From: Gammaproteobacteria bacterium TMED78
Lineage (GTDB): Bacteria; Pseudomonadota; Gammaproteobacteria; Steroidobacterales; Rariloculaceae
Assembly: GCA_002171615.1 (NCBI GenBank)
Contig: NHEF01000010.1
Coordinates: 155,017-219,016, forward strand
Reading direction: 5' to 3'
DNA: 64,000 nucleotides
The notes under the pieces were generated by a model. That model made no database searches and was not told the origin of the DNA. It saw nothing but the letters and a program-made list of their open reading frames with translations. The position numbers were made by a program, and so were the translations under genes. Of this stretch, positions 5,450-56,364 are shown piece after piece. Positions within the stretch are counted from its first letter, which is position 1. Each line of letters opens with the position of its first letter.

Positions 5450-6602
5450 TCATAGTCTCGTAATAAAAGATCGTCCTGAGATGGAGGGAGATTCTAAATT
5501 TTTTGTCAGTAACATCAATTTAAAAAATTCACCCATTTCTCCAGGCAAAATTAATTTTTTTATAGCCTGAGAAGTCAAATAATCATATGAAGAAAAGCTT
5601 TTATTGTCTAGTGAGTCTTTAGCTATATTATCAATAAGAAAATTACTTTGATTTGTATAACTACTTACTTCTAATCCTGACTCATAAGCCACTTCTGCAC
5701 AGGCTGTAAAGTTTACCCAACAGCTTATATCTTGTAAGCCAAGATAACTAAATGGATTATAATTATTTTTATGGCGATGATGACAAATCAAGGTTCCATC
5801 TTTTCTCTCAGGAGAATAATAGTCTTTTTCACTCATGCCGTAATCAATAATCAACAAAGCTCCTTTATTAATAAGCTCACTTATACTTCTTATCCATGCT
5901 GAAATATTATAAGAAATCTCGGAAGTATAATTTTCTGGTAATTGATAGCCTACACTAGACTCAATTGATTTTACCTTCATAGCTAATTCTTGGTCTTCAT
6001 CACCTACCATCCAGTCAAATCCATCGTTAACTTTACAAACACCTAGCGGCAAAACCCTATTTTTTTTTTTTCACAAATCTATTCACTGGCATAGCATCTA
6101 GTACTTCATTAGCTAATATTACGCCTTCAAAGGGTTGAGATGGTAAATTATCTAACCAACTAATCATTGATCTATATTTATTCAAATTCTTCTTCTGTCT
6201 CTCTCTAAGGACAGCACTTACTTCGAGAATTTTATACTCGATATCTAATGATTTATGTTCCAATAAATTTTTTAGTATATTTTTAGCTAAGATTCCACTA
6301 CCGGCACCAAATTCTATAATTTTTGGATTTTTCATCTCGCTTAGCATAGGAATTAGTTCGTTGGAAATTGCTTTAGCAAAAACAGGAGATAGCTCAGGAG
6401 CAGTAATAAAATCTCCTCTTATGCCAAACTTTTCAGACCTATTATTATAATAACCAAATTCTGGCTCATATAGGACATAGTTCATATAATCACTAAACGA
6501 CAGCCACCCCCCAGACATACCTATCTTATCTCTGAGTAGGTCTTCAATTGAAGCTGTTATAGCTTCTTCATCTTGACTTGCTTTAAATAATTTATCGGTC
6601 AT
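5450..6602 (-). pseudogene. MidA/NDUFAF7-like (COG1565, DUF185) SAM-dependent methyltransferase, reading frame broken at an A12 run
   Basis: The N-terminal ORF 6057..6602 has GDFITAPELSPVF, EFGAGSG and ANEVLDAMPVNRF, then ..VKKKK-stop. The C-terminal ORF 5450..6052 has ..LIIDYG..GTLICHH..QDISCWVNFT. Removing one A from the run joins them as ..RFVKKKNRVLPLGVCKVNDGFDW... Confidence 0.85.
6060..6071 (-). repeat. 12-nt homopolymer (A12 on the coding strand) at the MidA frameshift point
   Basis: Read directly: ...ccctat + ttttttttttt + cacaaatc. This is the longest homopolymer I noticed in the window, and the only one that breaks a frame. Confidence 0.95.
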
Positions 6603-11425: not shown

Positions 11426-11549
11426 ATTAGCAAAATATGCTTATATGGCATATTTTATGCATGTAAATATATATATAAAAAAGTGAAATTTTTTTCAAAG
11501 AAATGCATTTTTAAGATAAAATAGATCGATTATTTGCACGGAAAAACAT

Positions 11550-13397
11550 ATGGCGCTTTCATCAGAAAAAACTAAAAAAAATAATGTAGAGGATAAACAA
11601 TCCCAGCTCAAAATTCTTATCAGTAGAGGAAAGGAACAAGGCTATCTAACATTTAGTGAAATTAACGATCACTTACCAAATGACATAGTTGATCCAGAGC
11701 AGATAGAAGATATAGTTAATATGATAAATGATATGGGCATAACAGTCCATGAGAAAGCACCTGATGCAGAGTCAATAATACTCAGCGACTCAGCTGTTTC
11801 ATCTGATGACGATGCAGCTGAAGAAGCTGCTGTTGCATTAGCCTCTGTTGATAGTGAGTTTGGAAGAACAACTGACCCCGTAAGAATGTACATGAGAGAA
11901 ATGGGTACCGTTGAACTATTGACAAGAGAAGGTGAAATTGAAATTGCCCAGAGAATAGAAAAAGGTCTAGCTGATGTAAAAGCAGAACTTATACGCTTCC
12001 CAATGACAATAGGCCTCCTAATTGACCAATATGATCTTCTGAACAAAGGGTTAGGGAAAATCCAAGATATAGTAGTTGGGTTTATTGATCCATTTGAAGA
12101 AATAGCTGTGCCCTCAACAAAGAATAATAATGATGATAACAATTCTGTCGATGATGATGATGAAGAAGAACAGGATGAAGGCCCAGATCCAATAGAATTT
12201 GCAAAAAAAATGAAGCCAATCATTAGAAATTATAATGCATACATGAAAAGTCTTGAGAAAAATGGCTTCAATGATAAGACTACGATTAAAAAAGGTGAGC
12301 TAATTAAAGAACACTTCATGGAGCTTAAATTAGCACCAAAGATGCTAGAAGCTATACTGCTACAAATATCTGATACAGTAAAAGAAATCAGAACACAAGA
12401 AAGAGCTATCATATCAATTTGTGTGGATAAATCAGGAATGCCAAGAAAAGATTTTATTAATAGTTTCAAAAATAATGAGATAAATTTAGATTGGGTTAAT
12501 AAACACATTAGGGCAAAAAGAAAACACTCATCTCAATTAGCTAAGCAAAAACAAGATATAATTAGATCACAAAAACGTATAATTAAAGTAGAGGCTCTTA
12601 CTTGTTTAACAATATTAGAAATAAGAGAAATAAATAGACAAATATCTATCGGCAAAGCTAAAGCAAGAAGAGCAAAAAAAGAAATGGTTGAGGCTAACCT
12701 TAGATTAGTTATTTCTATAGCAAAAAAATACACAAATCGTGGTCTTCAATTTTTAGATCTTATACAAGAAGGCAATATAGGCTTAATGAAAGCAGTTGAT
12801 AAATTTGAATATAGAAGAGGATATAAATTTTCAACTTATGCTACATGGTGGATAAGACAAGCAATAACTCGTTCTATAGCAGATCAAGCGAGAACTATTA
12901 GAATACCTGTCCATATGATTGAAACTATCAATAAGCTTAATAGAATTTCTAGAAACATGCTTCAAGAAATGGGTCGTGAACCTACTCCCGAAGAGCTTTC
13001 TGAAAGAATGGACTTGCCCGAAGATAAGGTAAGAAAAGTGTTAAAAATTGCTAAAGAACCAATCTCAATGGAAACTCCTATAGGTGATGAGGAAGATTCG
13101 AATCTTGGTGACTTTATAGAAGATACGGAAGTTTCTTCCCCAATAGATACTGCTACGTCAGAGGGCCTGAAAGAAACTACTCATGCCGTCCTTGCAGGCT
13201 TAACTCCACGAGAAGCTAAAGTTTTAAGAATGCGGTTTGGTATAGATATGAACACAGACCATACACTAGAAGAGGTTGGTAAGCAGTTTGATGTTACAAG
13301 AGAAAGGATAAGGCAAATAGAAGCGAAGGCACTTCGTAAACTCCGACATCCATCAAGAACTGACCAGCTACGTAGTTTTCTACTTGAAGATCAATAA
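11550..13397 (+). CDS. rpoD: RNA polymerase primary sigma factor sigma-70
   Basis: Acidic non-conserved insert; region 2 [12 protein letters not shown]; region 4.2 [30 protein letters not shown]. Confidence 0.98.
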
Positions 13398-19637: not shown

Positions 19638-20693
19638 CTAGATAAATCGTTTTTGAATTTCTTTTAGAGCTGAACTTCCAGGGCAAAGTCTTTTAAATTC
19701 TAATTCGCTAAGTGGAGTGTCCGAAGTAGCATTAATTGTATGCATATCTGGTTCGCTTTCATCTATATAAAGTAGACCGGTCACTATCTCACCATCTCTA
19801 TGCTTTGCTCTTACATAATCCAAAGCTTGGCCTCTATTTTCAAAATTATATCCCTTGTCAAGCTTTCTAAGCACTACTCTACTACCATCATGCATTTCGA
19901 TTGGCATAGCTTCACCTTGATCATATGCAGTCTTAATTTCTTTGGCTGGAGGAATATAGTCAAGATGAACAGCAGGATGAAAGAATTCTCTAGTATGAGC
20001 ATAGCTTTTAGTAGAATCCTCGTGGTCATTAAAAGTTACACAAGGGGACAGTATGTCAATTAATCCGAATCCGTTATGCTTAATTGCAGCTTTTAATAAA
20101 GGAACAAGCTGTTTCTTATCTCCTGAAAACCCTCTAGCTACAAAAGTTGCACCTTGAGATAAAGCCATTTGTACTGGATCAATTGGAGGCTGTTCATTTA
20201 GCTCTCCTTTTTTTAATTTAGATCCTATATCTGCAGATGCAGAGAACTGCCCTTTAGTTAAGCCATAAACACCATTATTTTCAATTAAATAAGTCATATT
20301 AATATTTCTTCTCATGGCATGAGCAAATTGTCCAAGCCCTATAGAAAGTGAATCTCCATCACCAGAAACACCTATAACATTAATCTGCCTATTAGCTGCA
20401 CTTGTTCCTGTAGCAACAGAAGGCATTCTTCCATGAACAGAGTTAAAGCCATGAGACTGACCAAGAAAATAGGCAGGAGTTTTAGATGAACATCCAATAC
20501 CACTTAGCTTTGCCACTCTATGAGGTGGAATATCAAGCTCAAAAAAGGCCTGACATATTGCTGCTGTTATCGAGTCGTGTCCGCATCCAGCACATAATGT
20601 AGACATCCCTCCTTCATAATCTTGAATAGTTAAACCCAATTTATTTTTACGGAGACCTCCATGATCAATTTTTGGCTTAGAAATATAACTCAT
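19638..20693 (-). CDS. korB: 2-oxoacid:ferredoxin oxidoreductase beta subunit (TPP-binding, KorB-type)
   Basis: CAGCGHDSI, GIGCSS and VIGVSGDGDSLSIG (TPP GDG motif). The start overlaps the korA stop (20690-20693). Confidence 0.9.
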   Translation of the reverse strand: MSYISKPKIDHGGLRKNKLGLTIQDYEGGMSTLCAGCGHDSITAAICQAFFELDIPPHRVAKLSGIGCSSKTPAYFLGQSHGFNSVHGRMPSVATGTSAANRQINVIGVSGDGDSLSIGLGQFAHAMRRNINMTYLIENNGVYGLTKGQFSASADIGSKLKKGELNEQPPIDPVQMALSQGATFVARGFSGDKKQLVPLLKAAIKHNGFGLIDILSPCVTFNDHEDSTKSYAHTREFFHPAVHLDYIPPAKEIKTAYDQGEAMPIEMHDGSRVVLRKLDKGYNFENRGQALDYVRAKHRDGEIVTGLLYIDESEPDMHTINATSDTPLSELEFKRLCPGSSALKEIQKRFI

Positions 20694-22510
20694 GCTGCTT
20701 GGCCTTTATCAATAATTTTTTCTATTTCATTAACTATAGAACCACTACTAATAGGTAAACCGCTATAATTAAGAACTGAATGCATACACTTTTTAGGATA
20801 ATCTGTCTCTATAACTAACAAGCTTTTTAATTGCGCATCTCTATTTTGCTCAACAATAAATAAACTTTCATATTCATGAATAAAACTTACTACTTCTTTA
20901 CTAAAAGGAAATGCCTTTAATCTCAAATAGTCAAAATGAATACCTTTTTCTGAAAGCTCATCCATAGCCTCTAAGACTGCATAATCACAACTACCCAAAG
21001 AAATTATAGCTGATTTTGTTTTTTTCTTGCACTTTGTTATTTCTGGCTTAGGGACCTTATTAGAGGCAGTTTCGAATTTTTTAACTAACCTATCTAGAAC
21101 TTCCTGATACTCAGCAGAATCCTCCGTATAGCCTCCAAATTTATTATGCCCTGAGCCTCTTACAAAATATGCGCCTTTTGGATGAATGCCGGGATAAGTT
21201 CTATAAGTTACTCCATCGCCATCACTATCTAAATATCTATAAAATTTCTCTATTTTCTCAAGTTGACTTGCATTTAATACCTTCCCCTTATTAGGGGTAT
21301 ATTTATCATCCCAAGTTAACTCCTCACTCATCCAATCATTCATTCCTATATCTAAGTCTGTCAAAACGAAAACTGGAGTCTGGAAAAGGTCTGCTAGATC
21401 AAAAGCTTCTTTAGCCATCTCAAAGCACTCCTTTGGATTAGAGGGGAAAAGTATAATATGCTTAGTATCACCATGAGAGGCATATGCCGCTGATAAAATA
21501 TCACATTGTTGAGTTCTTGTAGGCATTCCTGTTGATGGACCGACTCTCTGAACATCAAATAGAACTGCTGGTAATTCAGCATAGTATGCCAAACCTAGAA
21601 ATTCACTCATTAGAGATATTCCTGGTCCACTTGTTGAAGTGAAGGATCTTGCACCATTCCAGTTTGCTCCTAGAACCATTCCAATAGCAGCTAACTCATC
21701 CTCTGCCTGAATCATTATGTAGTCTCTTTCACCAGTTTCATTATTCCTACGAAGCTTTTCAGAGAAAAACTTAAACGCGTCCATGAGACTTGTTGATGGC
21801 GTTATTGGATACCATGCACCAACAGTGGCGCCTGCATAAACACAACCAAGTCCAGCAGCTGTATTACCATCAATCATTATATGTCCCTTCGTTTTATTCA
21901 TTTTCTTAGTTCTAGTTTCAAGAGGGCATGAAAAATTTTCTCTAGCAAAATCATAACCAAGCTTTATAGCTTCCATATTAGAATCAATTAGATTAGCTTT
22001 TGACGCGAATGTCTCAGTTAATAAGGATTTAATTATCTCAAGATCTATTTCAAGAAGAGCAGCTAATGCCCCTACATAAGAAATATTCTTCATCAATATC
22101 CTAGCTCGGGCGTTAGAAAAGTGCTCATTACACATCCTGGCCAAGGGCACTCCAAGAATCTGTATATCTGATCTATGGTCAAAAGTATCTCTAGGCCAAC
22201 TTGAGTCGTAAATTAAAACTCCACCAGGCGATACTTCATCAAGGTCTTTCTGATATGTTTCGGCATTCATAGCAACCATAATATCAACCTCACCTGATCT
22301 AGCTAAGTACGAATCCTTAGTAACTCTTATTTCATACCAAGTAGGTAAGCCTTGAATATTACTAGGAAAGAAATTTTTTCCAGTAACAGGAATTCCCATC
22401 CTAAAAATAGACTTCATAAGCAATGTATTAGCGCTAGCAGAACCAGTGCCATTAACATTAGCAATCCTAATTACAAAGTCATTTACCCTGCTTTTCTTTT
22501 TGACTGACAA
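20690..22510 (-). CDS. korA: 2-oxoacid:ferredoxin oxidoreductase alpha subunit (fused gamma+alpha, KorA-type)
   Basis: The IANVNGTGSASAN N-terminal gamma-like domain followed by the GNTAAGLG..YPITPST alpha domain; 606 aa. Confidence 0.9.
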   Translation of the reverse strand: MSVKKKSRVNDFVIRIANVNGTGSASANTLLMKSIFRMGIPVTGKNFFPSNIQGLPTWYEIRVTKDSYLARSGEVDIMVAMNAETYQKDLDEVSPGGVLIYDSSWPRDTFDHRSDIQILGVPLARMCNEHFSNARARILMKNISYVGALAALLEIDLEIIKSLLTETFASKANLIDSNMEAIKLGYDFARENFSCPLETRTKKMNKTKGHIMIDGNTAAGLGCVYAGATVGAWYPITPSTSLMDAFKFFSEKLRRNNETGERDYIMIQAEDELAAIGMVLGANWNGARSFTSTSGPGISLMSEFLGLAYYAELPAVLFDVQRVGPSTGMPTRTQQCDILSAAYASHGDTKHIILFPSNPKECFEMAKEAFDLADLFQTPVFVLTDLDIGMNDWMSEELTWDDKYTPNKGKVLNASQLEKIEKFYRYLDSDGDGVTYRTYPGIHPKGAYFVRGSGHNKFGGYTEDSAEYQEVLDRLVKKFETASNKVPKPEITKCKKKTKSAIISLGSCDYAVLEAMDELSEKGIHFDYLRLKAFPFSKEVVSFIHEYESLFIVEQNRDAQLKSLLVIETDYPKKCMHSVLNYSGLPISSGSIVNEIEKIIDKGQAA

Positions 22511-24327
22511 TTTGCTTTTCCATTATTCATTTCATCAATAGCATAAGGTACATCTAAATTTGATTTTTGCATATCCCATGCAGCTGTTGGGCATCTTTCA
22601 GCACACAAGCCACAATGAACACAAAGATTTTCATCTTTAATCATTGCTCTACCAGTCTGCTTCAACGGCTCAGAGACAAACAAAAGCTGATCTTGATCAA
22701 GCCTGGGTGTAGTAAGATTTTTCTCAATAGCTTCTTGACCTTCATTTGGAGTAATGGTTAAGCAATCAACTGGACAAATATCAATACAAGCATCACATTC
22801 AATGCACAAATCTGGAAAAAAAACCGTCTGTAAATCACAATTTAAGCATCTCTCAACCTCTGTCACAACCTGATCAACAGTAAAACCAAGCTCAACCTCA
22901 ATGTCCAAATTGCTAAACCTCTCTTTAAGATCAACACTAGGCATTAGCCTACGAGATGAGGCATCAAAATCATTACTATAACTCCACTCATGTATACCCA
23001 TTTTTGCACTACTAAGATTAACGCCTCTTGGCAAACGCTCATCTAAAGGTTCATCATGGCAATATTTATGAATTGAAATAGCAGCTTGATGTCCATGCTC
23101 TACAGCCCAAATAATATTCTTAGGGCCAAATGCTGAGTCGCCTCCAAAAAAAACACCTGGTAGAGTCGATTGAAAAGTATTTTCATCAACAATAGGAACA
23201 TCCCATTGATCAAAATCTAAACCTAGGTCCCTCTCTATCCATGGGAAAGCATTATCTTGACCAATCGCTAATACCACATCATCGCAAGGGAAAAATTCCT
23301 CTCCTACTACCTCAGTGTTGGTAATTTTACCTTTTTCATCGGTCTCATATTGCATCTTCTCAAAAATCATTCCCTTAAGTACTCCATTCTTAATGACAAA
23401 CTCCTTTGGAGAATGATTAACAACTATTTCTACTTTTTCTTCCTCTGCATCTTCAAGTTCCCAATCAGAAGCCTTAAAAAAATCCCTAGGCTTTCTAGCC
23501 ATGACTTTCACATCGCTAGCACCTAACCGCAAGGAAGTTCTACAACAATCCATTGCCGTATTGCCAACACCGATAATCAAAACTTTCTTGCCTATTTTAT
23601 CAATATGGTCAAAAGCGACTGACTCAAGCCATTCAATACCAATATGTATATTATCACTGTCATATCTTCCTGGAATTTTTAAATCTTTTCCTTTTGGAGC
23701 GCCTGTTCCAACAAAAATAGCATCGTATCCTTCCTTCATAAGCTCTTTAAAACTATCGATTCGGGTGCCTAACCTCAGATCTACACCCATATCGATAATA
23801 TAATTCATTTCCTCATCTAGTACTTTTTCAGGTAGCCTGAATGACGGGATATTCGTTCTCATCAGCCCTCCTGGTTTTTCTAAGCCTTCAAATATAGTAC
23901 AGTCATAACCTAAAGGCATTAGATCATTTGCTACACTTAAGGAGGCGCAACCAGCGCCTATAAGAGCAATTCTTTTCCCGTTCTTTTTTTCTGGCGCCTT
24001 TGGCAACCTTGAAGTTATATCATCTCTATTATCTGATGCCACTCGTTTTAAACGACAAATAGCAACTGGTTTTTCTTCAACCCTTCCTCGTCTACATGCA
24101 GGCTCACATGGTCGATCGCAAACTCTTCCCAAAATACCTGGAAAAATATTTGATGCCCTATTAAGCATGTAAGCATCTGAGAACTCACCCTGAGCAATTA
24201 ATCTTATATATTCTGGGACATCAGTATGGGCAGGACAGCCCCACTGACAATCAACTACTTGGTGAAAGTATTCGTTCTCAGAAACTTTTGTAGGTTTCAT
24301 TGGTTTAAGACTCAAAACTAATTCCAA
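22483..24327 (-). CDS. GltD/NfnB-like NAD(P)H-dependent flavoprotein fused to a C-terminal 2x[4Fe-4S] ferredoxin domain
   Basis: N-terminal Cys cluster (CPAHTDVPEYI.., CDRPCEPACRRG). Two dinucleotide folds (IALIGAGCASLS, VLIIGVGNTAMD). C-terminal CIECDACIDICP and CVHCGLCAERCP. The 3' end overlaps the korA start by 28 nt. Confidence 0.85.
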   Translation of the reverse strand: MELVLSLKPMKPTKVSENEYFHQVVDCQWGCPAHTDVPEYIRLIAQGEFSDAYMLNRASNIFPGILGRVCDRPCEPACRRGRVEEKPVAICRLKRVASDNRDDITSRLPKAPEKKNGKRIALIGAGCASLSVANDLMPLGYDCTIFEGLEKPGGLMRTNIPSFRLPEKVLDEEMNYIIDMGVDLRLGTRIDSFKELMKEGYDAIFVGTGAPKGKDLKIPGRYDSDNIHIGIEWLESVAFDHIDKIGKKVLIIGVGNTAMDCCRTSLRLGASDVKVMARKPRDFFKASDWELEDAEEEKVEIVVNHSPKEFVIKNGVLKGMIFEKMQYETDEKGKITNTEVVGEEFFPCDDVVLAIGQDNAFPWIERDLGLDFDQWDVPIVDENTFQSTLPGVFFGGDSAFGPKNIIWAVEHGHQAAISIHKYCHDEPLDERLPRGVNLSSAKMGIHEWSYSNDFDASSRRLMPSVDLKERFSNLDIEVELGFTVDQVVTEVERCLNCDLQTVFFPDLCIECDACIDICPVDCLTITPNEGQEAIEKNLTTPRLDQDQLLFVSEPLKQTGRAMIKDENLCVHCGLCAERCPTAAWDMQKSNLDVPYAIDEMNNGKANCQSKRKAG

Positions 24328-29954: not shown

Positions 29955-31292
29955 TCAATCATAATTAAACTCTAGTTCTCTACCCTCTGCTGTGCCTAAA
30001 ATCTTTCCATTTTGACTAACAATCTTTCCGTTAAGAACCGTCATAATGACACTTGAAGACATAGAAAGACCTTCTAATGGTGACCATCCACATTTATATC
30101 GTAAATTCTCCTTGGATATATCATGCTTTTTACTTAAATCAGCAACTACAATATCTGCATAAAAACCTTCTCTCAAAAATCCTCTCTCTTTAATGCTAAA
30201 TAACCTTGCCGGATTATGACATGCCTTAGAAACTATTTTTTCTAAACTAAATAACCCTTGATGATAATACTGTAATAACATTAGCAAAGAATGCTGAACT
30301 AATGGCAAGCCTGAAGGTGCTAATAAGTATGGCTGTTTTTTTTCTTCTAATGTATGTGGAGCATGGTCTGTTGCAATGATATCAATTATATCTTCATTCA
30401 CAGCATTAATTAATGCTTTCTTATCAATTATTGATTTAATAGAGGGATTACACTTAATTTTATTTCCCAAGCTAGCATAATCTGATTCATCAAACCAAAG
30501 ATGATGGACGCATGCCTCTGCGGTAATTTTTTTATCTATAAGATCTCCCTTAGAGAATAAGCCTAATTCCTTCTTAGTAGAAAGATGAAGAACATGTAAC
30601 CTTGAATCATATTTTTTTGCAAGACCTACAGCTAATGACGAAGACTTAAAGCATGCTTCTTCTGACCGGATACTTGGATGATGTTCGATTGACAAGTTGC
30701 TAGTATATCTTTCTTTAAAAATTTTCTCATTTTTCCAAATAGTAGGAGAGTCTTCACAATGAGTAGCAATAATCAGTGGTGAATATCTAAAAATATTTTC
30801 TAAAGCCTCATGATCATCTACAAGCATATTTCCTGTTGAGGCACCCATAAATACTTTAATACCACAAGCATCATTTTTTGATATATTTTTTATATCTTCT
30901 AAATTATCATTTGTTGCTCCCAAATAAAAACCATAGTTAGCAAAGCTATTACCATTTGCTCTATTTTTCTTATCTTCTATTGCTTTCAAAGTTATAGTAG
31001 GTGGAGAAGTATTTGGCATCTCTAAAAAACTTGTTACCCCTCCACAAATAGCAGCCTGGCTTTCAGATAATATAGTGCCCTTATGAGTCATACCAGGCTC
31101 TCTGAGATGGACCTGATCATCAATTAAGCCAGGCAAAACATAGCTGCCATTTAAATCAATCACTTTATTTACAGGTATATGAGAAAGATCTGGATCAATT
31201 CTTTCTATTCTATCGCCTCGAATCAATAAATCAGACTCAAAGACTCTACCTTCGTTAACTAAAATACCATTTAATAAAAGAATTTCATTCAC
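29955..31292 (-). CDS. pyrC: Dihydroorotase-type cyclic amidohydrolase (long, Bacteroidetes-like form)
   Basis: PGLIDDQVHLREPGMTHKG, GIKVFMGASTGNM, ATHCED, HVLHLST and ATDHAPH motifs. Confidence 0.75.
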   Translation of the reverse strand: MNEILLLNGILVNEGRVFESDLLIRGDRIERIDPDLSHIPVNKVIDLNGSYVLPGLIDDQVHLREPGMTHKGTILSESQAAICGGVTSFLEMPNTSPPTITLKAIEDKKNRANGNSFANYGFYLGATNDNLEDIKNISKNDACGIKVFMGASTGNMLVDDHEALENIFRYSPLIIATHCEDSPTIWKNEKIFKERYTSNLSIEHHPSIRSEEACFKSSSLAVGLAKKYDSRLHVLHLSTKKELGLFSKGDLIDKKITAEACVHHLWFDESDYASLGNKIKCNPSIKSIIDKKALINAVNEDIIDIIATDHAPHTLEEKKQPYLLAPSGLPLVQHSLLMLLQYYHQGLFSLEKIVSKACHNPARLFSIKERGFLREGFYADIVVADLSKKHDISKENLRYKCGWSPLEGLSMSSSVIMTVLNGKIVSQNGKILGTAEGRELEFNYD

Positions 31293-48241: not shown

Positions 48242-48285
48242 TGCATAATTTGTACATATAATATAATATATGCACAAATTATGCA
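48242..48285. promoter_or_regulatory. 44-bp inverted repeat (candidate ArgR operator) over the argR promoter/5' end
   Basis: Arms TGCATAATTTGTACA (48242-48256) and TGCACAAATTATGCA (48271-48285) are 14/15 complementary. The spacer TATAATATAATATA contains -10-like hexamers. Confidence 0.45.
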
Positions 48286-48757
48286 CAAAGGATCATTAAT
48301 CATGCCTACATCTTTGACAGAACAATTAGGTCGACGTAACGCAATAGCTGAAATAATAAAGGAAAACAATGTGTTACGACAAAAAGAAATAGTAAATTTA
48401 CTTCAGAATAAAGGCTATGGGGTAACTCAGTCTAGCGTTAGTCGAGACTTAAAGGAAATGGGAATTAATAAATTTAACTCAAGTTATACTTTGCCTGAAA
48501 AAAATATTACTACTAATTATGCTCTAAAAAATATAGATAGCTTTATCATTGGAGTTATAAGCGCAGGCCCAAACCTTCTTGTCTTAAAAACAGAAATAGG
48601 CGCAGCTCAAAGAGTTGCTGTAACACTAGATGAACTTAACTGGCCAGAAATAATAGCAACACTATCTGGTGATGATACTATTTATATTGCTACTAGCAGT
48701 ATTTCGCAACAGAATAAAATTAAAATAAAATTAGAAAAGGATATTAATAATGGCTAA
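48281..48757 (+). CDS. argR: Arginine repressor
   Basis: Winged-helix ..QSSVSRDLKEMG.. and C-terminal GDDTIYIA motif. The true start may be the ATG at 48302 (MPTSLTEQ..), preceded by AAAGGA. Confidence 0.88.
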   Translation: MHKGSLIMPTSLTEQLGRRNAIAEIIKENNVLRQKEIVNLLQNKGYGVTQSSVSRDLKEMGINKFNSSYTLPEKNITTNYALKNIDSFIIGVISAGPNLLVLKTEIGAAQRVAVTLDELNWPEIIATLSGDDTIYIATSSISQQNKIKIKLEKDINNG

Positions 48758-49961
48758 TAAAAATTCTCCTATCATACTTGCCTTTTCTGGTGGCCTGGAT
48801 ACATCATTCTGTGTGCCTTGGCTAAAAGAAACCTATGGAAAACCAGTTATAACTGTCACAGTAGATACAGGTGGTATTAACAAAGAAACATCAAAACACT
48901 TGAAAGAACATTCTAAAAAACTAGGAGCTAATGACCACATCCTAGTCAATGCAAAAGATGACTTCTTTAATGATGTTCTTAAATTTTTAATTATGGGTAA
49001 TATAAAAAAGGGTAACATGTATCCTCTGTGTGTAGGCTCTGAAAGAGTTATTCAGGCAAAATATTTAGCTAAAATTGCAAAAGATATGCACTCTGATACT
49101 GTAGCTCATGGATGTACAGCCGCTGGAAATGATCAAATTCGGTTCCAAATAATTCTAAAATCATTAGCGCCTGATCTTAAAATACTAGCTCCAGTTAGAG
49201 ATCAATCATGGGCAAGAGATGATCAGGTAAGCTATCTAAAAAAATTAGGACTTCCCACCCCAAAATCAGGCTCAACTTACTCTATAAATCGAGGGCTATG
49301 GGGAGTTACTATTGGAGGATCTGAAACACTTGATTCTAAAGAGACTATTCCAGAATCTTCTTGGGAGCTCAGCCCTAATGTTTTTCCTTCCTCTTCTAAA
49401 AATGAACAGAAAATTATTATTGAATTTAAAAAAGGTATTCCAATTAAGATTAATGGAGAAGACCTCAACCCAATTCAGATAATTGAAAAACTAGAAACGA
49501 CTGGAAAGGTTTTTGGAATAGGTCGTGGTATCCATTTAGGAGATACTATATTAGGCATAAAAGGACGTGTTGCATTCGAGGCACCTGCTGCTGAGATTCT
49601 AATAAATGCTCATCGAGAATTAGAAAAACTAACACTTTCCTCTTTACAGTTAAAAATTAAGGAACAATTAAGCCTTCATTACTGTGAACTTATTCATGAG
49701 GGGAAACAGCTAGATCCTGCATGTAATGATATAGAGTCTTTTTTTATGTCATCACAAAAATATGTTTCTGGAAAAGTTGACTGTGTATTGCGCCCTGGTT
49801 CAGTTTTTATTACTGGAATTAAATCGCCTTTTTCTCTCATGTCAGCAAGTAAAAGTAAATATGGAGAATCTATAGGTGAGTGGGATGCTAGAGATGCACT
49901 AGGCTTTTCAAGAATCTTATCTCTACCAGGAACTCTTCACAGCAGAGTAAAGGAGAGTTAA
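48750..49961 (+). CDS. argG: Argininosuccinate synthase
   Basis: AFSGGLDTS N-terminal PP-loop and conserved core; 403 aa. Confidence 0.93.
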   Translation: MANKNSPIILAFSGGLDTSFCVPWLKETYGKPVITVTVDTGGINKETSKHLKEHSKKLGANDHILVNAKDDFFNDVLKFLIMGNIKKGNMYPLCVGSERVIQAKYLAKIAKDMHSDTVAHGCTAAGNDQIRFQIILKSLAPDLKILAPVRDQSWARDDQVSYLKKLGLPTPKSGSTYSINRGLWGVTIGGSETLDSKETIPESSWELSPNVFPSSSKNEQKIIIEFKKGIPIKINGEDLNPIQIIEKLETTGKVFGIGRGIHLGDTILGIKGRVAFEAPAAEILINAHRELEKLTLSSLQLKIKEQLSLHYCELIHEGKQLDPACNDIESFFMSSQKYVSGKVDCVLRPGSVFITGIKSPFSLMSASKSKYGESIGEWDARDALGFSRILSLPGTLHSRVKES

Positions 49962-49962
49962 T

Positions 49963-51030
49963 ATGCAATCTTTAATTGTAGATAAAATCTCTTCCGTTGC
50001 TATAGCAAATGATATAGGGCGTGAAATAAGAATAAGTCCTGACATTCCTTGTGAAGAAGGAGTGATTGTTGCTGCAAAAGTACTAAATAATAAATCTCGG
50101 TACAACACACTAGAGCTTACAAGCGGACGAATGGCCCAAATTAAAAAAGGGGATATTATTATTGGTGCACTTGGGCATAGAAAAGCATTATTTGGTTATT
50201 CTGGTCATATACCGGAAAAGCTTTCAGCTGGTGATAAAATACAAGTCTTAAACCTTGGGGGGGTTTTAGGCATTTGTGACTCTATTAATATTAGCCAGGG
50301 TTCTCCTTTTGACTGTGAAGTACTTGGTGTAGTTTTAGAATTTCCTTTCTTAGGTGAGAGAATAGGTGTTCCTGCAAAAGTTGGAGCACCTAAAAAAAAT
50401 ATAGTTAAAAAACTTGATCTTAATCAGATACCAATTATTGCTATTGCTGGGACTTGTATGGATTCAGGAAAAACAGTTGCGGCATGCTCTATAATAAGCC
50501 AGCTTAATCATAATGGATTTACTGTTGATGCATTTAAAAGTACTGGTGTTGCTCTTCGACGAGACATACTTGCTATGGAAGATGCAGGTGCTAGAAATAC
50601 AGAAATATTCTCTGACTATGGAGTAGTAGCTACAACTTCAGAAAACTCTGCTGATATAACAAAAAAAATATGTAGCTCTTTAGCTAATAATAATCCAGAT
50701 GTAATTGTATGTGAATTTGGCGATGGTATCCTTGGTGCATACGGAGTTGAATCTATTCTGTTAGACAAAGAGCTTAAAGGTTATTTCTCTTCTATTGTGC
50801 TTTGTGCAAATGATCCTATAGGTGCATGGGGAGGAGTTAAAATATTGAAAGATAATTTTAACTTAACTCCATCAGTTGTGACTGGACCAGCAACAGATAA
50901 TCAAGTAGGTATAGATATTATCGAAAAACAAAGTAGTATAAAAGCAATAAACGCTCTTACTAACTCAACAGATTTAGGTAATTTTATTGAATCAGAAATT
51001 TTGCCTAATAACATCGGAAGCAAAAAATGA
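49963..51030 (+). CDS. Uncharacterised two-domain protein: beta-rich N-terminal domain plus a P-loop (GTxxxxGKT) SIMIBI-like domain, embedded in the arg operon
   Basis: Intact 355-aa ORF. Its start is 1 nt after the argG stop with an AAGGAG RBS, and its stop overlaps the argC ATG (ATGA, 51027-51030). The motif IAIAGTCMDSGKTVAACSII has the GT-x4-GKT spacing of BioD/CobQ/DUF1611-type proteins. Confidence 0.8.
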   Translation: MQSLIVDKISSVAIANDIGREIRISPDIPCEEGVIVAAKVLNNKSRYNTLELTSGRMAQIKKGDIIIGALGHRKALFGYSGHIPEKLSAGDKIQVLNLGGVLGICDSINISQGSPFDCEVLGVVLEFPFLGERIGVPAKVGAPKKNIVKKLDLNQIPIIAIAGTCMDSGKTVAACSIISQLNHNGFTVDAFKSTGVALRRDILAMEDAGARNTEIFSDYGVVATTSENSADITKKICSSLANNNPDVIVCEFGDGILGAYGVESILLDKELKGYFSSIVLCANDPIGAWGGVKILKDNFNLTPSVVTGPATDNQVGIDIIEKQSSIKAINALTNSTDLGNFIESEILPNNIGSKK

Positions 51031-52088
51031 GTAATAAAATACCTGTAATAATATTAGGTGGATCTGGTTATGTAGCTGGAGAGTTACTTCGGCTTCTGTC
51101 ATATCATAAATACTTTTTTCCTAAATTGATTATTTCTAGTAGTCAAAATGGGAAATTTTTATCAGAAAAATTTCCATATCTGAAAAAAATTTATCCTAAA
51201 GAAAAATTTATATCAATTGAGGCTGGGATAGAGGGGCTTCAGGGGCATGATCACTGGATGGTAATATCTGCTGCCAATCATGGAAGCTCAGCTAAAACAA
51301 TAAATAAAATCATCTCTGAATCAAAAAAATTAAATCTAAAGACTAACATAATCGATATTGCAGCTGACTTCAGGTTTGATAACAAAAATGACTTTGAAAA
51401 AACCTATGGTCAAGATCATACAGCACCTGAACTTATAAAATCGTTTATTTGTGGTATTCCTGAACAAATAAAAGAAAATAATTATAATAATATCTCTCAT
51501 CCAGGATGTTTTTCTACATCAATGCTACTATCTATTGTTCCATTAGTTGAGAACAATATTAGCGAATTTGATTTTTTTACTAGCGCAGTCACTGGAAGCA
51601 CAGGATCTGGTAGCTTACCTAAAATAAATACTCATCATCCTGTTCGTGATGGCAATTTTTTTTCATATAAGCCCCTTAAGCACCGACACTCGATAGAAGT
51701 AGAGCATATTATAAAAAAAATTACTAACAAAGGAATAAATCTAAATTTTGTACCTCATTCAGGGCCATTTACTCGTGGAATATATGCAACTACTTTTTGT
51801 AAATTAAAAAATGATTATGATGAAAAATATATTTTTAACCTGTTTAAAAATTATTACAAAGAAAAGCCTTTTGTAGATATACTGAATGCCCCCCCTAAAA
51901 TAAAGGATGTAGTTGGAACAAATGAAGCCCAGCTCTCTATATCTTTAAATAACAATAATCTAGTTATTTGTTGTGTTATTGATAATCTAGTAAAAGGTGC
52001 TGCGGGAGGTGCAATTCAATTTGCGAACAAACTACTAGGATGGCCTGAGACAGAGGGTTTAATGATCCCTCCAATAGGATGGGCATAA
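51027..52088 (+). CDS. argC: N-acetyl-gamma-glutamyl-phosphate reductase
   Basis: ILGGSGYVAGELLRLL and active-site SHPGCFST; 353 aa. Confidence 0.9.
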   Translation: MSNKIPVIILGGSGYVAGELLRLLSYHKYFFPKLIISSSQNGKFLSEKFPYLKKIYPKEKFISIEAGIEGLQGHDHWMVISAANHGSSAKTINKIISESKKLNLKTNIIDIAADFRFDNKNDFEKTYGQDHTAPELIKSFICGIPEQIKENNYNNISHPGCFSTSMLLSIVPLVENNISEFDFFTSAVTGSTGSGSLPKINTHHPVRDGNFFSYKPLKHRHSIEVEHIIKKITNKGINLNFVPHSGPFTRGIYATTFCKLKNDYDEKYIFNLFKNYYKEKPFVDILNAPPKIKDVVGTNEAQLSISLNNNNLVICCVIDNLVKGAAGGAIQFANKLLGWPETEGLMIPPIGWA

Positions 52089-53236
52089 TGTCAAAATATA
52101 ATGCACACTTACAAGAAGTATATCCTGTCTTACCCTTTGAGCCCGTAAAAGGTGACGGAGTTTTCCTCAAAGATGAGAAAAATAAAAAAGTGCTAGATTT
52201 ATATGGCGGGCATGCAGTTACGTGTCTAGGATACAATCATAAAAAATTGATAACAGCTATAACTAATCAAGCAAAAAATCTTCTTTTTCAAAGCAATGCT
52301 GTAATTATGAAGTCTAGAGATGATGCTGCTACAAAATTAGCTGAATTTTCCCCTAAAAACCTTAATAAAGTTTTTTTTGTTAATAGTGGTGCTGAAGCGA
52401 ATGAGAATGCTATTCGTATAGCACTTCAATTAACAGGAAGAAAAAAAATCATAGCTATAGAAAATGCATTCCATGGTAGAACAGCTGCTGCTGGAGCTGT
52501 AACTTGGGGATCACAAAAAAAATGGTATGGATTCCCATCAACGCCTATGAAAGTAGAATTTATACCTAGAAATGATATTGACTCGTTAAAAAAAGCTGTT
52601 GACAAAGATACTGCGGCAGTGATCATTGAGCCGATTCAGGGAGTTGCAGGTGCTTATAAATTTTCTAATGAGTTTATTAATTCTATTCAACATCAGTGCA
52701 AAAAAAATAAAACTTTATTGATCTTTGATGAGGTTCAAACAGGAATGGGTAGGTTGGGCGTACCTTTTGGAGCAGATTATTTTCAAGTAACGCCTGACTT
52801 ATTGACGGTAGCAAAATCGTTAGCAGGAGGACTCCCCTGTGGTGCAGTCATTATGAAGGAAAAAATAATAAAAAATTTAGGTGCTGGCTCTCTAGGAACA
52901 ACTTTTGGTGGAGGTCCCCTTTCATCTGTAGCCATTAGTGCAGTTATAGACACTATTATTGATGACAACCTTATGGATAATATAAATAGTGTATCAAAAT
53001 ATTTATTTAGTACCTGTAAAATAGATCCAGTTATTGATATTCAGGGAGCAGGATTTTTAATTGGGTTAAAAACAAAAATACCTGCTAATGTTTTAAGAGA
53101 TAAGTTACTGAAAAAAAATATAATGACTGGAACTAGCAGTGACCCAAATATCTTGCGTCTACTTCCACCATATATACTAGAAAAATCGCATATCGAAATA
53201 CTCTCATCAGCTCTAAAGGAAATAAATAATGAATAG
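52079..53236 (+). CDS. argD: Acetyl(succinyl)ornithine aminotransferase (class III PLP)
   Basis: NSGAEANE, DEVQTGMGR and TVAKSLAGG (PLP Lys). An alternative start at 52088 would give a TAATG overlap with argC. Confidence 0.9.
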   Translation: MGIMSKYNAHLQEVYPVLPFEPVKGDGVFLKDEKNKKVLDLYGGHAVTCLGYNHKKLITAITNQAKNLLFQSNAVIMKSRDDAATKLAEFSPKNLNKVFFVNSGAEANENAIRIALQLTGRKKIIAIENAFHGRTAAAGAVTWGSQKKWYGFPSTPMKVEFIPRNDIDSLKKAVDKDTAAVIIEPIQGVAGAYKFSNEFINSIQHQCKKNKTLLIFDEVQTGMGRLGVPFGADYFQVTPDLLTVAKSLAGGLPCGAVIMKEKIIKNLGAGSLGTTFGGGPLSSVAISAVIDTIIDDNLMDNINSVSKYLFSTCKIDPVIDIQGAGFLIGLKTKIPANVLRDKLLKKNIMTGTSSDPNILRLLPPYILEKSHIEILSSALKEINNE

Positions 53237-54230
53237 CTTTAATGACCTTACTGATTTTAGTAATGATGAAATTGATAATCTAATTGATCTAGCAAATCAA
53301 CTAGAAAAAAATCCTAGCCCTAATGTACTAAAGGGCAAGGTGCTATCATTACTTTTCCTAAGTCCATCACTTAGGACTCTTGCGTCTTTTCAGGCTGGCA
53401 TGTCTAGGTTAGGTGGGGGTTCATTTGTTATTTCTCCTGATATGTCTATTCATGGTCTAGAAACTCGACATGGAATAGTTATGGATGGCTCAGCCGCTGA
53501 ACATATTAAAGAAGCGGTTCCTGTTATAGCTTCTTATGGTGATGCAGTCGGAATAAGAGCTTTTGCTGAGAGAGAAAATATAGATGATGATTTAGAAGAT
53601 ATTAAATTTAAAAATCTATCATCTTTGGTTGATAAGCCATTAATTAATATGGAATCGGCAATACAGCACCCATGTCAGAATTTAGCAGATTGGAAAACAA
53701 TGGATAATTTAGAAATTCCAAAGAATGGTGGAAAGTTTGTGCTATCTTGGGCTTATCATCCAAATGCACTCCCTCTGGCCGTTCCTGCATCTACTTTAAT
53801 CATGGCGGCTAAACGTGGAATGGATGTGACAGTTTTAAGACCTGATGGTTTTGCATTACCAAAAAGTATTTTAGAAAAAGCAACTAATGAAGCTACAAAA
53901 TCAGGTGGGAGCGTTCTAGAATCTGATAATAGAAAAGTAGCAATGGAAGGGGCCGATGTAATCTATGCTAAATCTTGGTCTTCAACCTTACACTATGGAG
54001 ATCAAATTAAAGATAAACTATTAAGAGAAAAATTTATTGATTGGTGCATTGATGAAGAGTGGTTTAATACAGCAAAAAAACAATGTAAATTTATGCATTG
54101 TCTGCCTGTGAGAAGAGGGGTCGTAGTTTCTGATGGTATATTAGATGGGCCTCGGAGTATTGTCATAGAGGAAGCTCGTAATCGTATGTATGCTCAAATG
54201 GCCATTCTATATAAAATGATGAAAGGATAA
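53229..54230 (+). CDS. argF': N-acyl-L-ornithine carbamoyltransferase (ArgF' type, acetyl or succinyl)
   Basis: SPSLRT replaces the classical STRTR. HPCQNLAD and HCLPVRRG are present, and the OTC DxxxSMG motif is absent (KSWSS instead). This is the pattern remembered for Xanthomonas AOTCase and Bacteroides SOTCase. Confidence 0.8.
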   Translation: MNSFNDLTDFSNDEIDNLIDLANQLEKNPSPNVLKGKVLSLLFLSPSLRTLASFQAGMSRLGGGSFVISPDMSIHGLETRHGIVMDGSAAEHIKEAVPVIASYGDAVGIRAFAERENIDDDLEDIKFKNLSSLVDKPLINMESAIQHPCQNLADWKTMDNLEIPKNGGKFVLSWAYHPNALPLAVPASTLIMAAKRGMDVTVLRPDGFALPKSILEKATNEATKSGGSVLESDNRKVAMEGADVIYAKSWSSTLHYGDQIKDKLLREKFIDWCIDEEWFNTAKKQCKFMHCLPVRRGVVVSDGILDGPRSIVIEEARNRMYAQMAILYKMMKG

Positions 54231-54237
54231 AAAAAAT

Positions 54238-55167
54238 ATGAGTGAATTAAAAAAAAATGAAAGAGCAATAGTTGTCTCTGCATTAAAGAGAGCCGCTCCA
54301 TATATCAGAATGTTTAAAGGTAAGATATTCGTCTTAAAAATTGGAGGAGAAGCTCTCCTATCATCAAAAGCAACGAATTTACTTGTAGAGCAAATAGGAA
54401 TTTTGTATGACCTTGGAATTAAAGTTATTTTAGTACATGGTGGAGGTCCTCAATCAACAGAGTTAGCAAAATCATTAGGTATCGATAGTAAATTTATTGA
54501 GGGGCGACGTGTTACAGATAAAAAAGCACTTGAGATTTCTGCAATGGTACTTAATGGTCAAATTAACACTAAATTATTAGCATGCTTTAGGGATCTTGCT
54601 ATCCCTGCCGTTGGAATTAGTGGAGTGGACGCTGGCCTTATCCAAGCTATCAAAAGGCCTGTTGTGCAAGATGATAAAGGTGTAAAAATAAAAGATTATG
54701 GATTTGTCGGTGATATTCAAAGTGTTGAGGCTAATATTCTCTTTAAGCAGTTAGACAATGGCCTTATTCCTGTTGTAAGTCCATTATCTGCTGATGATAA
54801 AGGAACATTGTTAAATATAAATGCTGATACAGTTGCTGCAGCAATTGCTTCAGCGATGAAAGCAGAGAAATTAATTTTAGCCATGAGTGCGCCAGGAATT
54901 TTAGAAGATAAAAATAATCCTAAGTCTATGATCTCATATGTTGATATAAATGGTTTAAAAAAGCTTAAAGATGAAGGTAAGTTAGAAGATGGAATGCTCC
55001 CTAAAGCAAAAGCGATAGAGCTTGCCCTTACCAGTGGCGTACCTCGTGTCCATGTTATTTCCTATGATTTAGCTGATAGCTTATTATTGGAGATATTTAC
55101 TAATGATGGAACAGGAACGCTAGTAGTGAATGATATAAATATATTAAGCAAAGCTGAGAAAAAATAG
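54238..55167 (+). CDS. argB: Acetylglutamate kinase (long N-terminal helix form)
   Basis: VLKIGGEAL and VHGGGPQ motifs in an amino-acid kinase fold. At 309 aa it has no fused NAGS domain. Confidence 0.92.
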   Translation: MSELKKNERAIVVSALKRAAPYIRMFKGKIFVLKIGGEALLSSKATNLLVEQIGILYDLGIKVILVHGGGPQSTELAKSLGIDSKFIEGRRVTDKKALEISAMVLNGQINTKLLACFRDLAIPAVGISGVDAGLIQAIKRPVVQDDKGVKIKDYGFVGDIQSVEANILFKQLDNGLIPVVSPLSADDKGTLLNINADTVAAAIASAMKAEKLILAMSAPGILEDKNNPKSMISYVDINGLKKLKDEGKLEDGMLPKAKAIELALTSGVPRVHVISYDLADSLLLEIFTNDGTGTLVVNDINILSKAEKK

Positions 55168-55176
55168 GAAGTTATT

Positions 55177-56364
55177 ATGAAACGTTTATGGGATAAAGAC
55201 TTACCAGTAGATAATTTAATCTTGAAATATACTGTAGGTAATGATTTTCATTTGGACGAGCGATTAGTTGAATATGATATTCAAGCATCAATAGCCCATG
55301 CAAGTATGCTTAAAGAGAAAGGCTTAATAAAAAAAGATGATTATCATAAAATTTCTAAAGCACTTAAGAAAATTGGAAAAGATCATAAAAACGGTGAGTG
55401 GAAAATTGATCTTGAGCAAGAAGACTGTCATACAGCAATAGAAAACCATCTGACAAAATATCTTGGCTCAGCAGGAGGAAGCATTCATCTTGGGCGCTCC
55501 AGGAACGATCAAGTACTTGCTGCCTTAAGACTTTATCTTAAGGATGTAGGAGATAACGTAGCAAAGGAGCTTGAGTTACTAATTAGTAAAATCAATGTAC
55601 TTATTAAGAAGCAAGGTGAAGTTCAACTTCCTGGCTATACTCATACACAGAGGGGTATGCCTAGCTCTGTTAAGCTATGGGCTGAAGGATATACTTCTGA
55701 ATTATCAGACGATGTAATAGGAATCAAATTAGCTACTAATAGGGCTGACAAAAATCCATTAGGATCAGCTGCAGGATATGGCACTCCTGGTCTTAATATT
55801 GATAGGGAGCTAACAACAAAAAGCTTAGGATTTAAATCTACACATGAGCCAGTAACAGCTGTTCAGATAAGTCGAGGAAAAGCTGAAGCATCAGTAATAT
55901 TTGAAATTACAATTATTTTAGGTGATTTAGCTAAATTAGCATCAGATATTATTTTATTCTATAGTGATGAGTTTTCCTTTTTAGATATCAAGAAAAACAT
56001 AACTACTGGATCTTCAATAATGCCTCAGAAAAATAATCCTGATGTTTTTGAACTAGTAAGAAGTGCTGAATCTATAGGAATAGCTTCACTAGTAGAAACT
56101 TTATCAATCTCTTCAAAGTTAATCTCTGGATATCATCGAGATCTACAAAGAATAAAAATGCCACTATTCCGATCTATCGATATTGCAATTGATACTATAA
56201 AAATTATGACTCACTCAATAGAAAATATATCATTTAATGAGAAAAATATAATATTAAATCCTGATATTTATGCTACAGAACAGGCTAATAAATTAGCTTT
56301 AGAAAAAAATATATCGTTCAGGGAGGCCTATAAAATGGTTGCAAAGAAAATAGATGAAAAATAA
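55177..56364 (+). CDS. argH: Argininosuccinate lyase (short C-terminus)
   Basis: LWDK..YTVGNDFHLD.. N-terminus and the signature GSSIMPQKNNPD. At 395 aa it is shorter than the ~450-460 aa of typical enzymes. Confidence 0.88.
   Translation: MKRLWDKDLPVDNLILKYTVGNDFHLDERLVEYDIQASIAHASMLKEKGLIKKDDYHKISKALKKIGKDHKNGEWKIDLEQEDCHTAIENHLTKYLGSAGGSIHLGRSRNDQVLAALRLYLKDVGDNVAKELELLISKINVLIKKQGEVQLPGYTHTQRGMPSSVKLWAEGYTSELSDDVIGIKLATNRADKNPLGSAAGYGTPGLNIDRELTTKSLGFKSTHEPVTAVQISRGKAEASVIFEITIILGDLAKLASDIILFYSDEFSFLDIKKNITTGSSIMPQKNNPDVFELVRSAESIGIASLVETLSISSKLISGYHRDLQRIKMPLFRSIDIAIDTIKIMTHSIENISFNEKNIILNPDIYATEQANKLALEKNISFREAYKMVAKKIDEK

Follow-up and report, generated by a model that had tools for sequence, protein, structure and literature searches.

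A P-loop protein encoded in the arginine operon of Gammaproteobacteria bacterium TMED78 is a predicted N-succinyl-L-glutamate synthase

The stretch of Gammaproteobacteria bacterium TMED78 DNA analysed here (contig NHEF01000010.1, positions 155,017 to 219,016; 64 kb, below called the window) carries a compact operon for arginine biosynthesis, argR-argG-X-argC-argD-argF'-argB-argH, on the + strand (48281-56364). Its third gene, which we name X, codes for a protein of 355 aa. From its conserved operon position, the gene fusions of its relatives, its predicted fold and the residue governing acyl specificity in the adjacent carbamoyltransferase, we propose that X is probably the enzyme of the first step, an N-acylglutamate synthase, and that the acyl group it transfers is probably succinyl. 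The feature is genuine and of biological interest, and X is a new member of a family for which this role has been predicted before. The 2026 GapMind preprint predicts that the family of Steroidobacter ACG33_RS14135 is the missing N-succinylglutamate synthase (bioRxiv 10.1101/2024.10.14.618325). According to this work, neither ArgA nor ArgE is present in Steroidobacter denitrificans, although the organism can grow on minimal medium; homologues of ACG33_RS14135 are found "virtually always" in arg operons, never in the same genome as ArgA homologues and in some cases near argE candidates. The preprint adds that the predicted structure has a weak likeness to DgcN (PDB 7XRJ) and that position 92 of the neighbouring ArgF' is A, P, S or V in 90% of cases (bioRxiv 10.1101/2024.10.14.618325). 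X and ACG33_RS14135 apparently belong to the same family, as judged by proxy through Steroidobacteraceae relatives: X aligns with the homologue of a Steroidobacteraceae metagenome-assembled genome (MAG) found in the same operon slot (L060) with 60% identity over 346 residues, without gaps and with 453 bits. A preliminary description of the window had suggested that X could be a new component of the arginine pathway, a novelty that is weakened by this earlier prediction (bioRxiv 10.1101/2024.10.14.618325). Our analysis independently reproduces three observations of the preprint: the synteny, the co-occurrence with argE and the pattern of residues in ArgF'. New beyond it are fusions of X to ArgB and of an AstE-like domain to ArgH, a high-confidence two-domain model of X, and a resemblance to BioD that is closer than that to DUF1611.

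The operon is tightly packed, as the preliminary description had it, with consecutive junctions of -8, +1, -4, -10, -8, +7 and +9 nt (overlaps negative). The ribosome-binding site of X, an AAGGAG Shine-Dalgarno sequence, lies inside the 3' end of argG, and in the tetranucleotide ATGA the start of argC overlaps the stop of X. Pfam and NCBIfam confirmed the seven arg assignments. The operon genes are:

48281-48757, + strand: argR, arginine repressor (Arg_repressor and Arg_repressor_C domains)
48750-49961, + strand: argG, argininosuccinate synthase (TIGR00032, 293 bits against a cut-off of 268)
49963-51030, + strand: X, 355 aa, predicted N-succinyl-L-glutamate synthase (alternative ArgA), from conserved synteny and the preprint prediction for the family
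51027-52088, + strand: argC (TIGR01850, 285 bits against a cut-off of 234)
52079-53236, + strand: argD, N-acylornithine aminotransferase (Aminotran_3, 301 bits; TIGR00707 family)
53229-54230, + strand: argF', N-acylornithine carbamoyltransferase, probably succinyl-specific (NF003384, 327 bits against a cut-off of 288)
54238-55167, + strand: argB, N-acylglutamate kinase, 309 aa, without a GNAT domain (TIGR00761, 211 bits)
55177-56364, + strand: argH, argininosuccinate lyase, short form of 395 aa (TIGR00838, 290 bits, model positions 20-390 of 455)

The scan of the window took in the open reading frames (ORFs) of at least 90 aa that lie wholly inside it; no GNAT, ArgJ or M20 protein and no GNAT-extended ArgB was found among these, in agreement with what had been read from the sequence before.

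Homologues of X are numerous. A protein search over 5.8 billion clusters at 90% identity gave more than 6,600 clusters (90% identity), every named one of which is called hypothetical, while an exhaustive profile search gave 1,584 clusters at 50% identity (E <=0.001). In a scan with one genome per species, at least 592 species carry a homologue, among them Woeseiaceae, Steroidobacteraceae, Rariloculaceae and many unclassified Gammaproteobacteria. The mean column identity of 28 sequences labelled Gammaproteobacteria or Rhodospirillaceae is 80%, and X appears to be under strong purifying selection. Family members include proteins of Gemmatimonadota and Aenigmatarchaeota, and further matches are labelled Myxococcota, Acidobacteriota, Planctomycetota and Alphaproteobacteria. 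A fungal full-length member, P0237 of Aspergillus avenaceus (KAE8149165.1, 27% identity), was also retrieved; it could result from horizontal transfer or from contamination.

The slot of X in the order argR-argG-X-argC-(argD)-argF'-argB-argH is kept in all 80 loci retained from the genome scan. A metagenome scan with a distant alignment yielded another 80 loci, in 71 of which arg genes adjoin X; the other nine lie on contigs below 2 kb, too short to show neighbours. Gene order varies among the more distant members:

P0124, 46% identity to X: argR-X-argC-argD-argF'-argB
P0150 (Gemmatimonadota), 40% identity to X: argR-X-argC-argD-argB-argG
P0182, 34% identity to X: argG-X-argC-argB-argF'-argH
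P0191, 33% identity to X: argG-X-argF'-argH
P0257, 31% identity to X: carA-carB-argG-argF'-X-argC-argB-[AstE-like::ArgH]-argD

The arrangement of X within the arg operon is not due to chance. Its persistence down to about 30% identity bears out the earlier proposal, for which a neighbourhood survey had been suggested, that X is a component of the arginine pathway. Two members adjoin a gene for a RimK-family alpha-L-glutamate ligase, not arg genes: P0165 (39% identity to X; L082 267-1202, - strand) and P0214 (32% identity; L093 9044-10878), the latter from an Aenigmatarchaeota MAG. Their position suggests a second glutamate-linked role for part of the family.

Some other features of these loci were recorded. 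A small gene of the glyoxalase/VOC superfamily lies directly after or near X in four distant arg operons, L112 (9084-9494), L117 (8959-9450), L126 (2662-3075) and L130 (971-1366), and a gene for a tRNA_bind-domain protein is found between argC and argD in three loci. The 687-aa X-ArgC-like protein P0172 is probably a read-through of adjacent genes.

The preliminary description had left open whether X is a first-step enzyme or a surrogate for the missing deacylase. The first of these roles fits best. An M20 ArgE-type gene is present in the same operon as X in L105, L115 and L173, the order in L105 being argG-X-argC-argF'-argB-M20-argH with argD not on the contig. L091, with the gene order carA-carB-argG-argF'-X-argC-argB-[AstE-like::ArgH]-argD, codes for a 735-aa fusion (10869-13076) of a succinylglutamate desuccinylase/aspartoacylase-like domain with ArgH. 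The AstE-like domain retains the motifs HGNE and DIHST, which we take to be the zinc-binding motifs of its family, and the fusion protein is a candidate N-succinylcitrulline desuccinylase. N-acylglutamate synthesis is the only step without a gene in L091, and X is the sole unassigned gene within the operon; by elimination, this step would fall to X. The same holds for L105 but for the argD missing on its contig. A full-length X is moreover fused to ArgB in P0230, found identical in four contigs from four samples (L095 8001-9881, with the true start near 7860, and also L096-L098) of a GC-rich lineage. The frame extends upstream to an ATG, which gives a complete N-terminal domain. This fusion points to step 1 because ArgB uses the product of that step. 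The ArgB adjoining X carries no GNAT extension in any of 67 close or 24 distant loci. Next to the X-ArgB fusion lies a divergent gene of the arginase family.

The nature of the acyl group can be approached through ArgF'. The best PDB match of the window's enzyme is the E92A mutant of the Xanthomonas campestris N-acetylornithine carbamoyltransferase (AOTCase; 3l02), and its Ala90 stands at the position of Glu92:

53496-53498, + strand: codon of ArgF' Ala90, aligned with Glu92 of X. campestris AOTCase (3l02, 3m4n and 3l05)

Replacement of Glu92 by Ala, Pro, Ser or Val switches AOTCase to N-succinylornithine, according to mutagenesis work summarised in the preprint (bioRxiv 10.1101/2024.10.14.618325). 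Among 74 ArgF' sequences of the close set, the window's included, position 92 is Ala in 72, Val in one and Pro in one, and among 33 sequences from distant loci it is Thr (15), Ala (11), Val (4), Ser (2) or Pro (1). The ArgF' of L091 has Pro at this position. The acetyl-specifying Glu92 is found in none of the 107 aligned proteins. Given a first-step role for X, the acyl group is thus likely succinyl rather than acetyl, and the AstE-like deacylase of L091 also fits succinyl chemistry. The acylated pathway of the preliminary description, which spoke of an N-acyl group, is retained, with that group now taken as probably succinyl, not acetyl. In view of Ala90, the NCBIfam name N-acetylornithine carbamoyltransferase is probably wrong, being too specific for the window's ArgF'.

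X itself has no match above cut-off in Pfam or NCBIfam, the sole match being MobB with 19 bits, and a PDB sequence search found no match above threshold. The P-loop motif announced earlier, IAIAGTCMDSGKT, was located at residues 159-171, and its loop G163-x5-G169-K170-T171 has the spacing of BioD. A first AlphaFold2 (AF2) model built on 28 close homologues had a poor N-terminal domain, with a predicted local distance difference test (pLDDT) score of 71.5, and was superseded by one built on 68 diverse sequences including distant representatives, whose pLDDT is 95.4 and whose predicted template modelling score is 0.92. The N-terminal region of about 150 aa, described before as beta-rich, has 12 strands and one short helix in this model. 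The parts of X are:

49963-50412, + strand: N-terminal all-beta domain, residues 1-150 (AF2 model, pLDDT >90)
50425-51009, + strand: C-terminal BioD-like (SIMIBI) P-loop domain, residues 155-349 (Foldseek; family profile)
50449-50475, + strand: P-loop GTCMDSGKT, G163-T171 (read from the sequence)
50536-50538, + strand: codon of Lys192, invariant in the family alignments
50701-50727, + strand: Walker-B-like strand VIVCEFGDG with E251 and G253, both at least 90% conserved

The structural comparison by Foldseek placed BioD first (3of5, 1dbs, 1dts; E ~1e-6, target-normalised template modelling (TM) score at most 0.62), followed by HypB and signal recognition particle (SRP) GTPases. The whole-protein matches have a query-normalised TM score of ~0.4 and aligned lengths that correspond to the C-terminal domain; the N-terminal domain is uncovered by any structure among the top 50 matches listed. 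DUF1611 appears at rank 32 (2obn_B, E 4.9e-5, TM 0.41, C-terminal domain only), and DgcN (7XRJ) is absent among the same listed top 50. The family profile matches Mycobacterium tuberculosis BioD (3fgn, E 6e-4), with the GxxxxxGKT loop and the lysine of the following CKP aligned. We take the BioD lysine that aligns with K192 to be the catalytic Lys37, and the E251/G253 strand presumably corresponds to the VEGAGG motif of BioD. Weak Pfam matches among 57 family members were to CbiA (32), MobB (31), DUF1611_C (28) and AAA_26 (9). Foldseek, profile and weak Pfam matches thus agree on the P-loop of BioD/CobQ/DUF1611 type proposed in the preliminary description. X falls outside the BioD family proper: it has no PF13500 match above cut-off, and only nine of the 57 members match that model weakly.

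For DUF1611, PF07755 (DUF1611_C) matches 28 of the 57 members weakly (best E 1.3e-5; P0246 reaches 20.9 bits against a cut-off of 25) and does not match the window's X at E <=0.1, PF17396 (DUF1611_N) matches none of the 57, and no DgcN/DUF1611 entry was found in PDB sequence searches with X, with the family profile or with a DUF1611-matching member. In the model, X is a BioD-like P-loop protein with an N-terminal domain of its own kind. A distant kinship with DgcN appears genuine: the DgcN/DUF1611 resemblance suggested before holds for the P-loop domain and does not go beyond it, being no stronger than that to BioD. The HypB and SRP matches reflect the shared SIMIBI fold and not membership in the G3E/SRP GTPases; no NKxD/TKxD guanine motif was seen in X by eye, and its loop has five intervening residues.

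Conservation is found in both domains. In the N-terminal one E51, G71-x-R73-x-A75, P84 and LNLGGVxG (96-103) are conserved. In the two family alignments, conservation reaches at least 90% at E51, R73, G169, K170, T171, D201, D218, D246, E251 and D284, and K192 is invariant in both. A conserved catalytic cysteine was considered and rejected, since distant members linked to arg genes do not retain the P-loop residue Cys165.

We infer the substrate, product, donor and catalytic residues of X as follows. X would N-acylate L-glutamate, probably to N-succinyl-L-glutamate, and would so supply the missing first committed step. ArgB would phosphorylate N-succinyl-L-glutamate, ArgC and ArgD would lead to N-succinylornithine, and ArgF' (Ala90, succinyl type) would form N-succinylcitrulline, from which a desuccinylase encoded outside the window would release citrulline for conversion to arginine by ArgG and ArgH. 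The BioD-like P-loop domain (G163-x5-GKT171, K192, E251) might bind the phosphates of the acyl donor, while the all-beta N-terminal domain (E51, R73, LNLGGVxG) might help to build the glutamate site. By analogy, we tentatively name succinyl-CoA as the donor, short of an even chance, in which case the P-loop would grip the nucleotide moiety of CoA; it is favoured because DgcN, the only characterised distant relative, N-acetylates D-glutamate. DgcN uses acetyl-CoA. DapE would be a candidate for the desuccinylase of the window's organism.

Several leads were followed and discarded. A LysW/LysX-type carrier pathway was rejected, as the operon has no space for a small carrier gene and LysW-bound ornithine was reasoned to be unfit as a substrate of ArgF'. 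The Amidohydro_1 ORF at 29955-31292, the window's only amidohydrolase, is a dihydroorotase (674 bits). L090 also has an amidohydrolase gene, located upstream of argR, but its product is of the TRZ/ATZ type and not related to that ORF. A tblastn search of the window with the AstE-like domain of L091 gave no match.

The same first step might be reached by another chemistry, in which X is an ATP-dependent succinate:L-glutamate ligase that forms succinyl phosphate, attacked in turn by the alpha-amine of glutamate to give N-succinylglutamate, ADP and phosphate. We regard this variant as possible but unlikely, and the chance we allow it is part of, not additional to, that of the first-step role. It draws on the fact that the best structural and profile matches of X are BioD (E ~1e-6; 3fgn E 6e-4) and not DUF1611, on the conserved ATP-site motifs of BioD type (GxxxxxGKT, the invariant K192, E251) and on the lack of a PF17396 match in X; the desuccinylase would set succinate free, and its re-ligation would cost about the same as succinyl-CoA. 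CobB/CobQ and formate-tetrahydrofolate ligase share with BioD a carboxylate-phosphorylating chemistry. Against it speak the description of DgcN, the only characterised glutamate-acylating relative, as an acetyltransferase, and the lack of an assignable nucleotide-base recognition motif in X; no ATP-dependent N-acylglutamate synthase is known, and conservation of the P-loop is equally expected if it binds the ADP part of CoA. Arginine biosynthesis started by X without acyl-CoA, with one ATP spent per cycle on re-ligating succinate, is a minority view among our readings. If true, it would give a textbook step a new class of enzyme, and the RimK-associated members, the archaeal one included, would be related N-acyl-amino-acid ligases of other pathways.

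Roles outside the acylation of glutamate from a free donor were also weighed. An ArgJ-like transacylase, moving succinyl from N-succinylcitrulline or N-succinylornithine to glutamate, would cover both missing steps with the one unassigned gene of the window operon, and S. denitrificans is reported to lack both ArgA and ArgE (bioRxiv 10.1101/2024.10.14.618325). X is, however, co-operonic with deacylase candidates in L105, L115, L173 and L091, needless if succinyl were recycled; the conserved phosphate-binding P-loop has no obvious part in acyl exchange, the family as a whole keeps no Cys, Ser or Thr that could serve as nucleophile (Cys165 is lost in distant arg-linked members), and a priming synthase would still be required, so that this role is very unlikely. 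Scarcely better are the prospects of an accessory NTPase, whether it acts as a metallochaperone, helps to assemble an arg enzyme or regulates one. HypB and SRP/FtsY GTPases among the top Foldseek matches and the weak MobB and CbiA Pfam matches are in its favour, and such NTPases are often co-operonic with their clients; yet the loop is GxxxxxGKT as in BioD and not the usual GxxxxGK[ST], no NKxD was seen, and step 1 would be left without a gene in otherwise complete operons (L091, L105). The ArgB fusion and the reported mutual exclusion with ArgA suit an enzyme better, and the highly conserved N-terminal domain of 150 residues suggests a substrate site. Least probable of all, to the point of being nearly dismissed, is that X is the N-acylcitrulline or N-acylornithine deacylase in place of ArgE: no M20 or other deacylase is found among the scanned ORFs of the window, but X stands beside M20 ArgE-type genes and an AstE-like domain in other lineages, its model reveals no hydrolase fold or metal-binding motif, and its fusion partner is ArgB, not a late-pathway enzyme. 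This half of the earlier alternative is therefore not upheld.

The assignment of X to the first step has points that weigh against it. As modelled, X has the fold of a P-loop NTPase and not a known acyltransferase fold, and the function of each family member is a predicted one. The link to DgcN/DUF1611 is weak (2obn_B at rank 32, 7XRJ outside the listed top 50), and, the N-terminal domain having no PF17396 match, the acyl-CoA binding mode is not simply transferable from DgcN. The view taken here covers 64 kb, and argA or argJ may possibly lie elsewhere in the genome; the desuccinylase of this organism would lie outside the window and leaves a gap in the scheme. The X-ArgB fusion carries modest weight because it is limited to one lineage, and the RimK-neighbouring members mean that the family is not functionally uniform. 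In L126 a GNAT gene directly follows X, the sole such case in ~150 informative loci; accompanied by an APH phosphotransferase and a glyoxalase-family gene, it looks like an insertion. For the acyl group, lineages with Thr at ArgF' position 92 are less certain, because Thr is outside the tested substitutions.

The remaining features of the operon bear on its expression and on its annotation. Other gene callers place the start of argD 9 nt further downstream. The ArgH of the window lacks ~60 C-terminal residues of the standard model; this short C-terminus is common to 59 of 60 close loci, while the ArgH proteins adjoining distant X homologues are 61-119 aa longer. A palindrome covers the beginning of the operon:

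48242-48285, unstranded: candidate ArgR operator, 44-nt palindrome over the argR start codon (two 22-nt arms, 91% complementary)

Similar palindromes are found at the equivalent position in L001 and L004, and through the element ArgR may control the whole operon, its own gene included. A scan for E. coli-type ARG boxes gave 90 matches against 94 expected and is uninformative because the DNA is AT-rich. The motif TGCA-N7-TGCA was rejected as operator because no more than 9 of 72 loci carry it ahead of argR. Clustering of the flanks of L001-L080 revealed no added pathway gene, only common synteny (ABC transporter, polA).

Two observations concern the rest of the window. A Methyltransf_28 protein is split over two adjacent ORFs in different frames (5450-6602, - strand), one of 181 aa (profile positions 2-114) and one of 200 aa (132-248); the gene may be frameshifted or a pseudogene, or the split may be a sequencing error. 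At 19638-24327 (- strand) three adjacent genes code for a 2-oxoacid:ferredoxin oxidoreductase (POR/POR_N, TPP_enzyme_C) and a large Fer4/Pyr_redox_2 protein. This set is unusual in a marine gammaproteobacterium that is apparently aerobic.

Should X catalyse the first step, a widespread group of bacteria would owe its arginine to an enzyme that has no kinship with any known N-acetylglutamate synthase (NAGS) and is a non-homologous replacement of it. Woeseiaceae, Steroidobacteraceae and Rariloculaceae would be among this group, and relatives are present in MAGs labelled Gemmatimonadota, Myxococcota, Acidobacteriota and Planctomycetota. Because X is annotated as hypothetical and the transcarbamylase is named as acetyl-specific, metabolic reconstructions would wrongly score these lineages, which are abundant in sediment and soil, as arginine auxotrophs. 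The family, a P-loop protein joined to an unmatched beta domain, also offers a clean target for biochemistry.

Among known systems, that of ACG33_RS14135 is the closest. It shares with X the arg-operon context, a residue other than Glu at ArgF' position 92 and the lack of ArgA and ArgE (in the window operon here, in the S. denitrificans genome as reported); the window differs in the 33% GC of its genome, in its short ArgH and in the closest homologues of X, which come from Pseudomonadota/Gammaproteobacteria MAGs. DgcN and DUF1611 proteins (PF07755 and PF17396; 7XRJ, 2obn) have in common with X the BioD-type P-loop in the C-terminal domain, and DgcN N-acylates glutamate. The N-terminal domain of X is, in contrast, all-beta without a PF17396 match, and X has no PF07755 match. 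PF17396 is a Rossmann-like domain. DgcN also departs from the role proposed for X in acting on D-Glu and not L-Glu, with acetyl where X would probably use succinyl, and in catabolism instead of biosynthesis. The dgcN genes reported in Woeseiales (PMC12363236) may be either true DUF1611 genes or weak matches to the X family.

BioD provides the best structural match to the C-terminal domain of X, with the GxxxxxGKT loop and the following lysine aligned, but it is a single domain of ~225 aa that lacks the 150-residue beta domain, belongs to a biotin context and has 12-16% identity to X. BioD-like ligases (the N-terminal domains of CobB/CobQ and of CTP synthase) activate an oxyanion by phosphorylation before linking it to an amine. 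The classical NAGS enzymes (ArgA, ArgJ, the short GNAT, Xanthomonas NAGS/K and the Bacteroidetes GNAT) share with X the reaction type and pathway position proposed for it, whereas the fold of X is unrelated to theirs and no GNAT or ArgJ domain is found in it by Pfam/NCBIfam. The X-ArgB fusion, which is rare, has a parallel in ArgA and NAGS/K, where a synthase is likewise fused to a kinase domain, and the slot of X in the operon is presumably the one held by the GNAT gene in Bacteroidetes arg clusters. The succinyl pathway of Bacteroides (2fg6, 1js1) resembles the one proposed here in its logic and in an ArgF' without Glu92; it differs in that its first enzyme would be a GNAT instead of X, and in sequence the window's ArgF' matches X. 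campestris AOTCase (221 bits) better than it does the enzyme of B. fragilis (161 bits).

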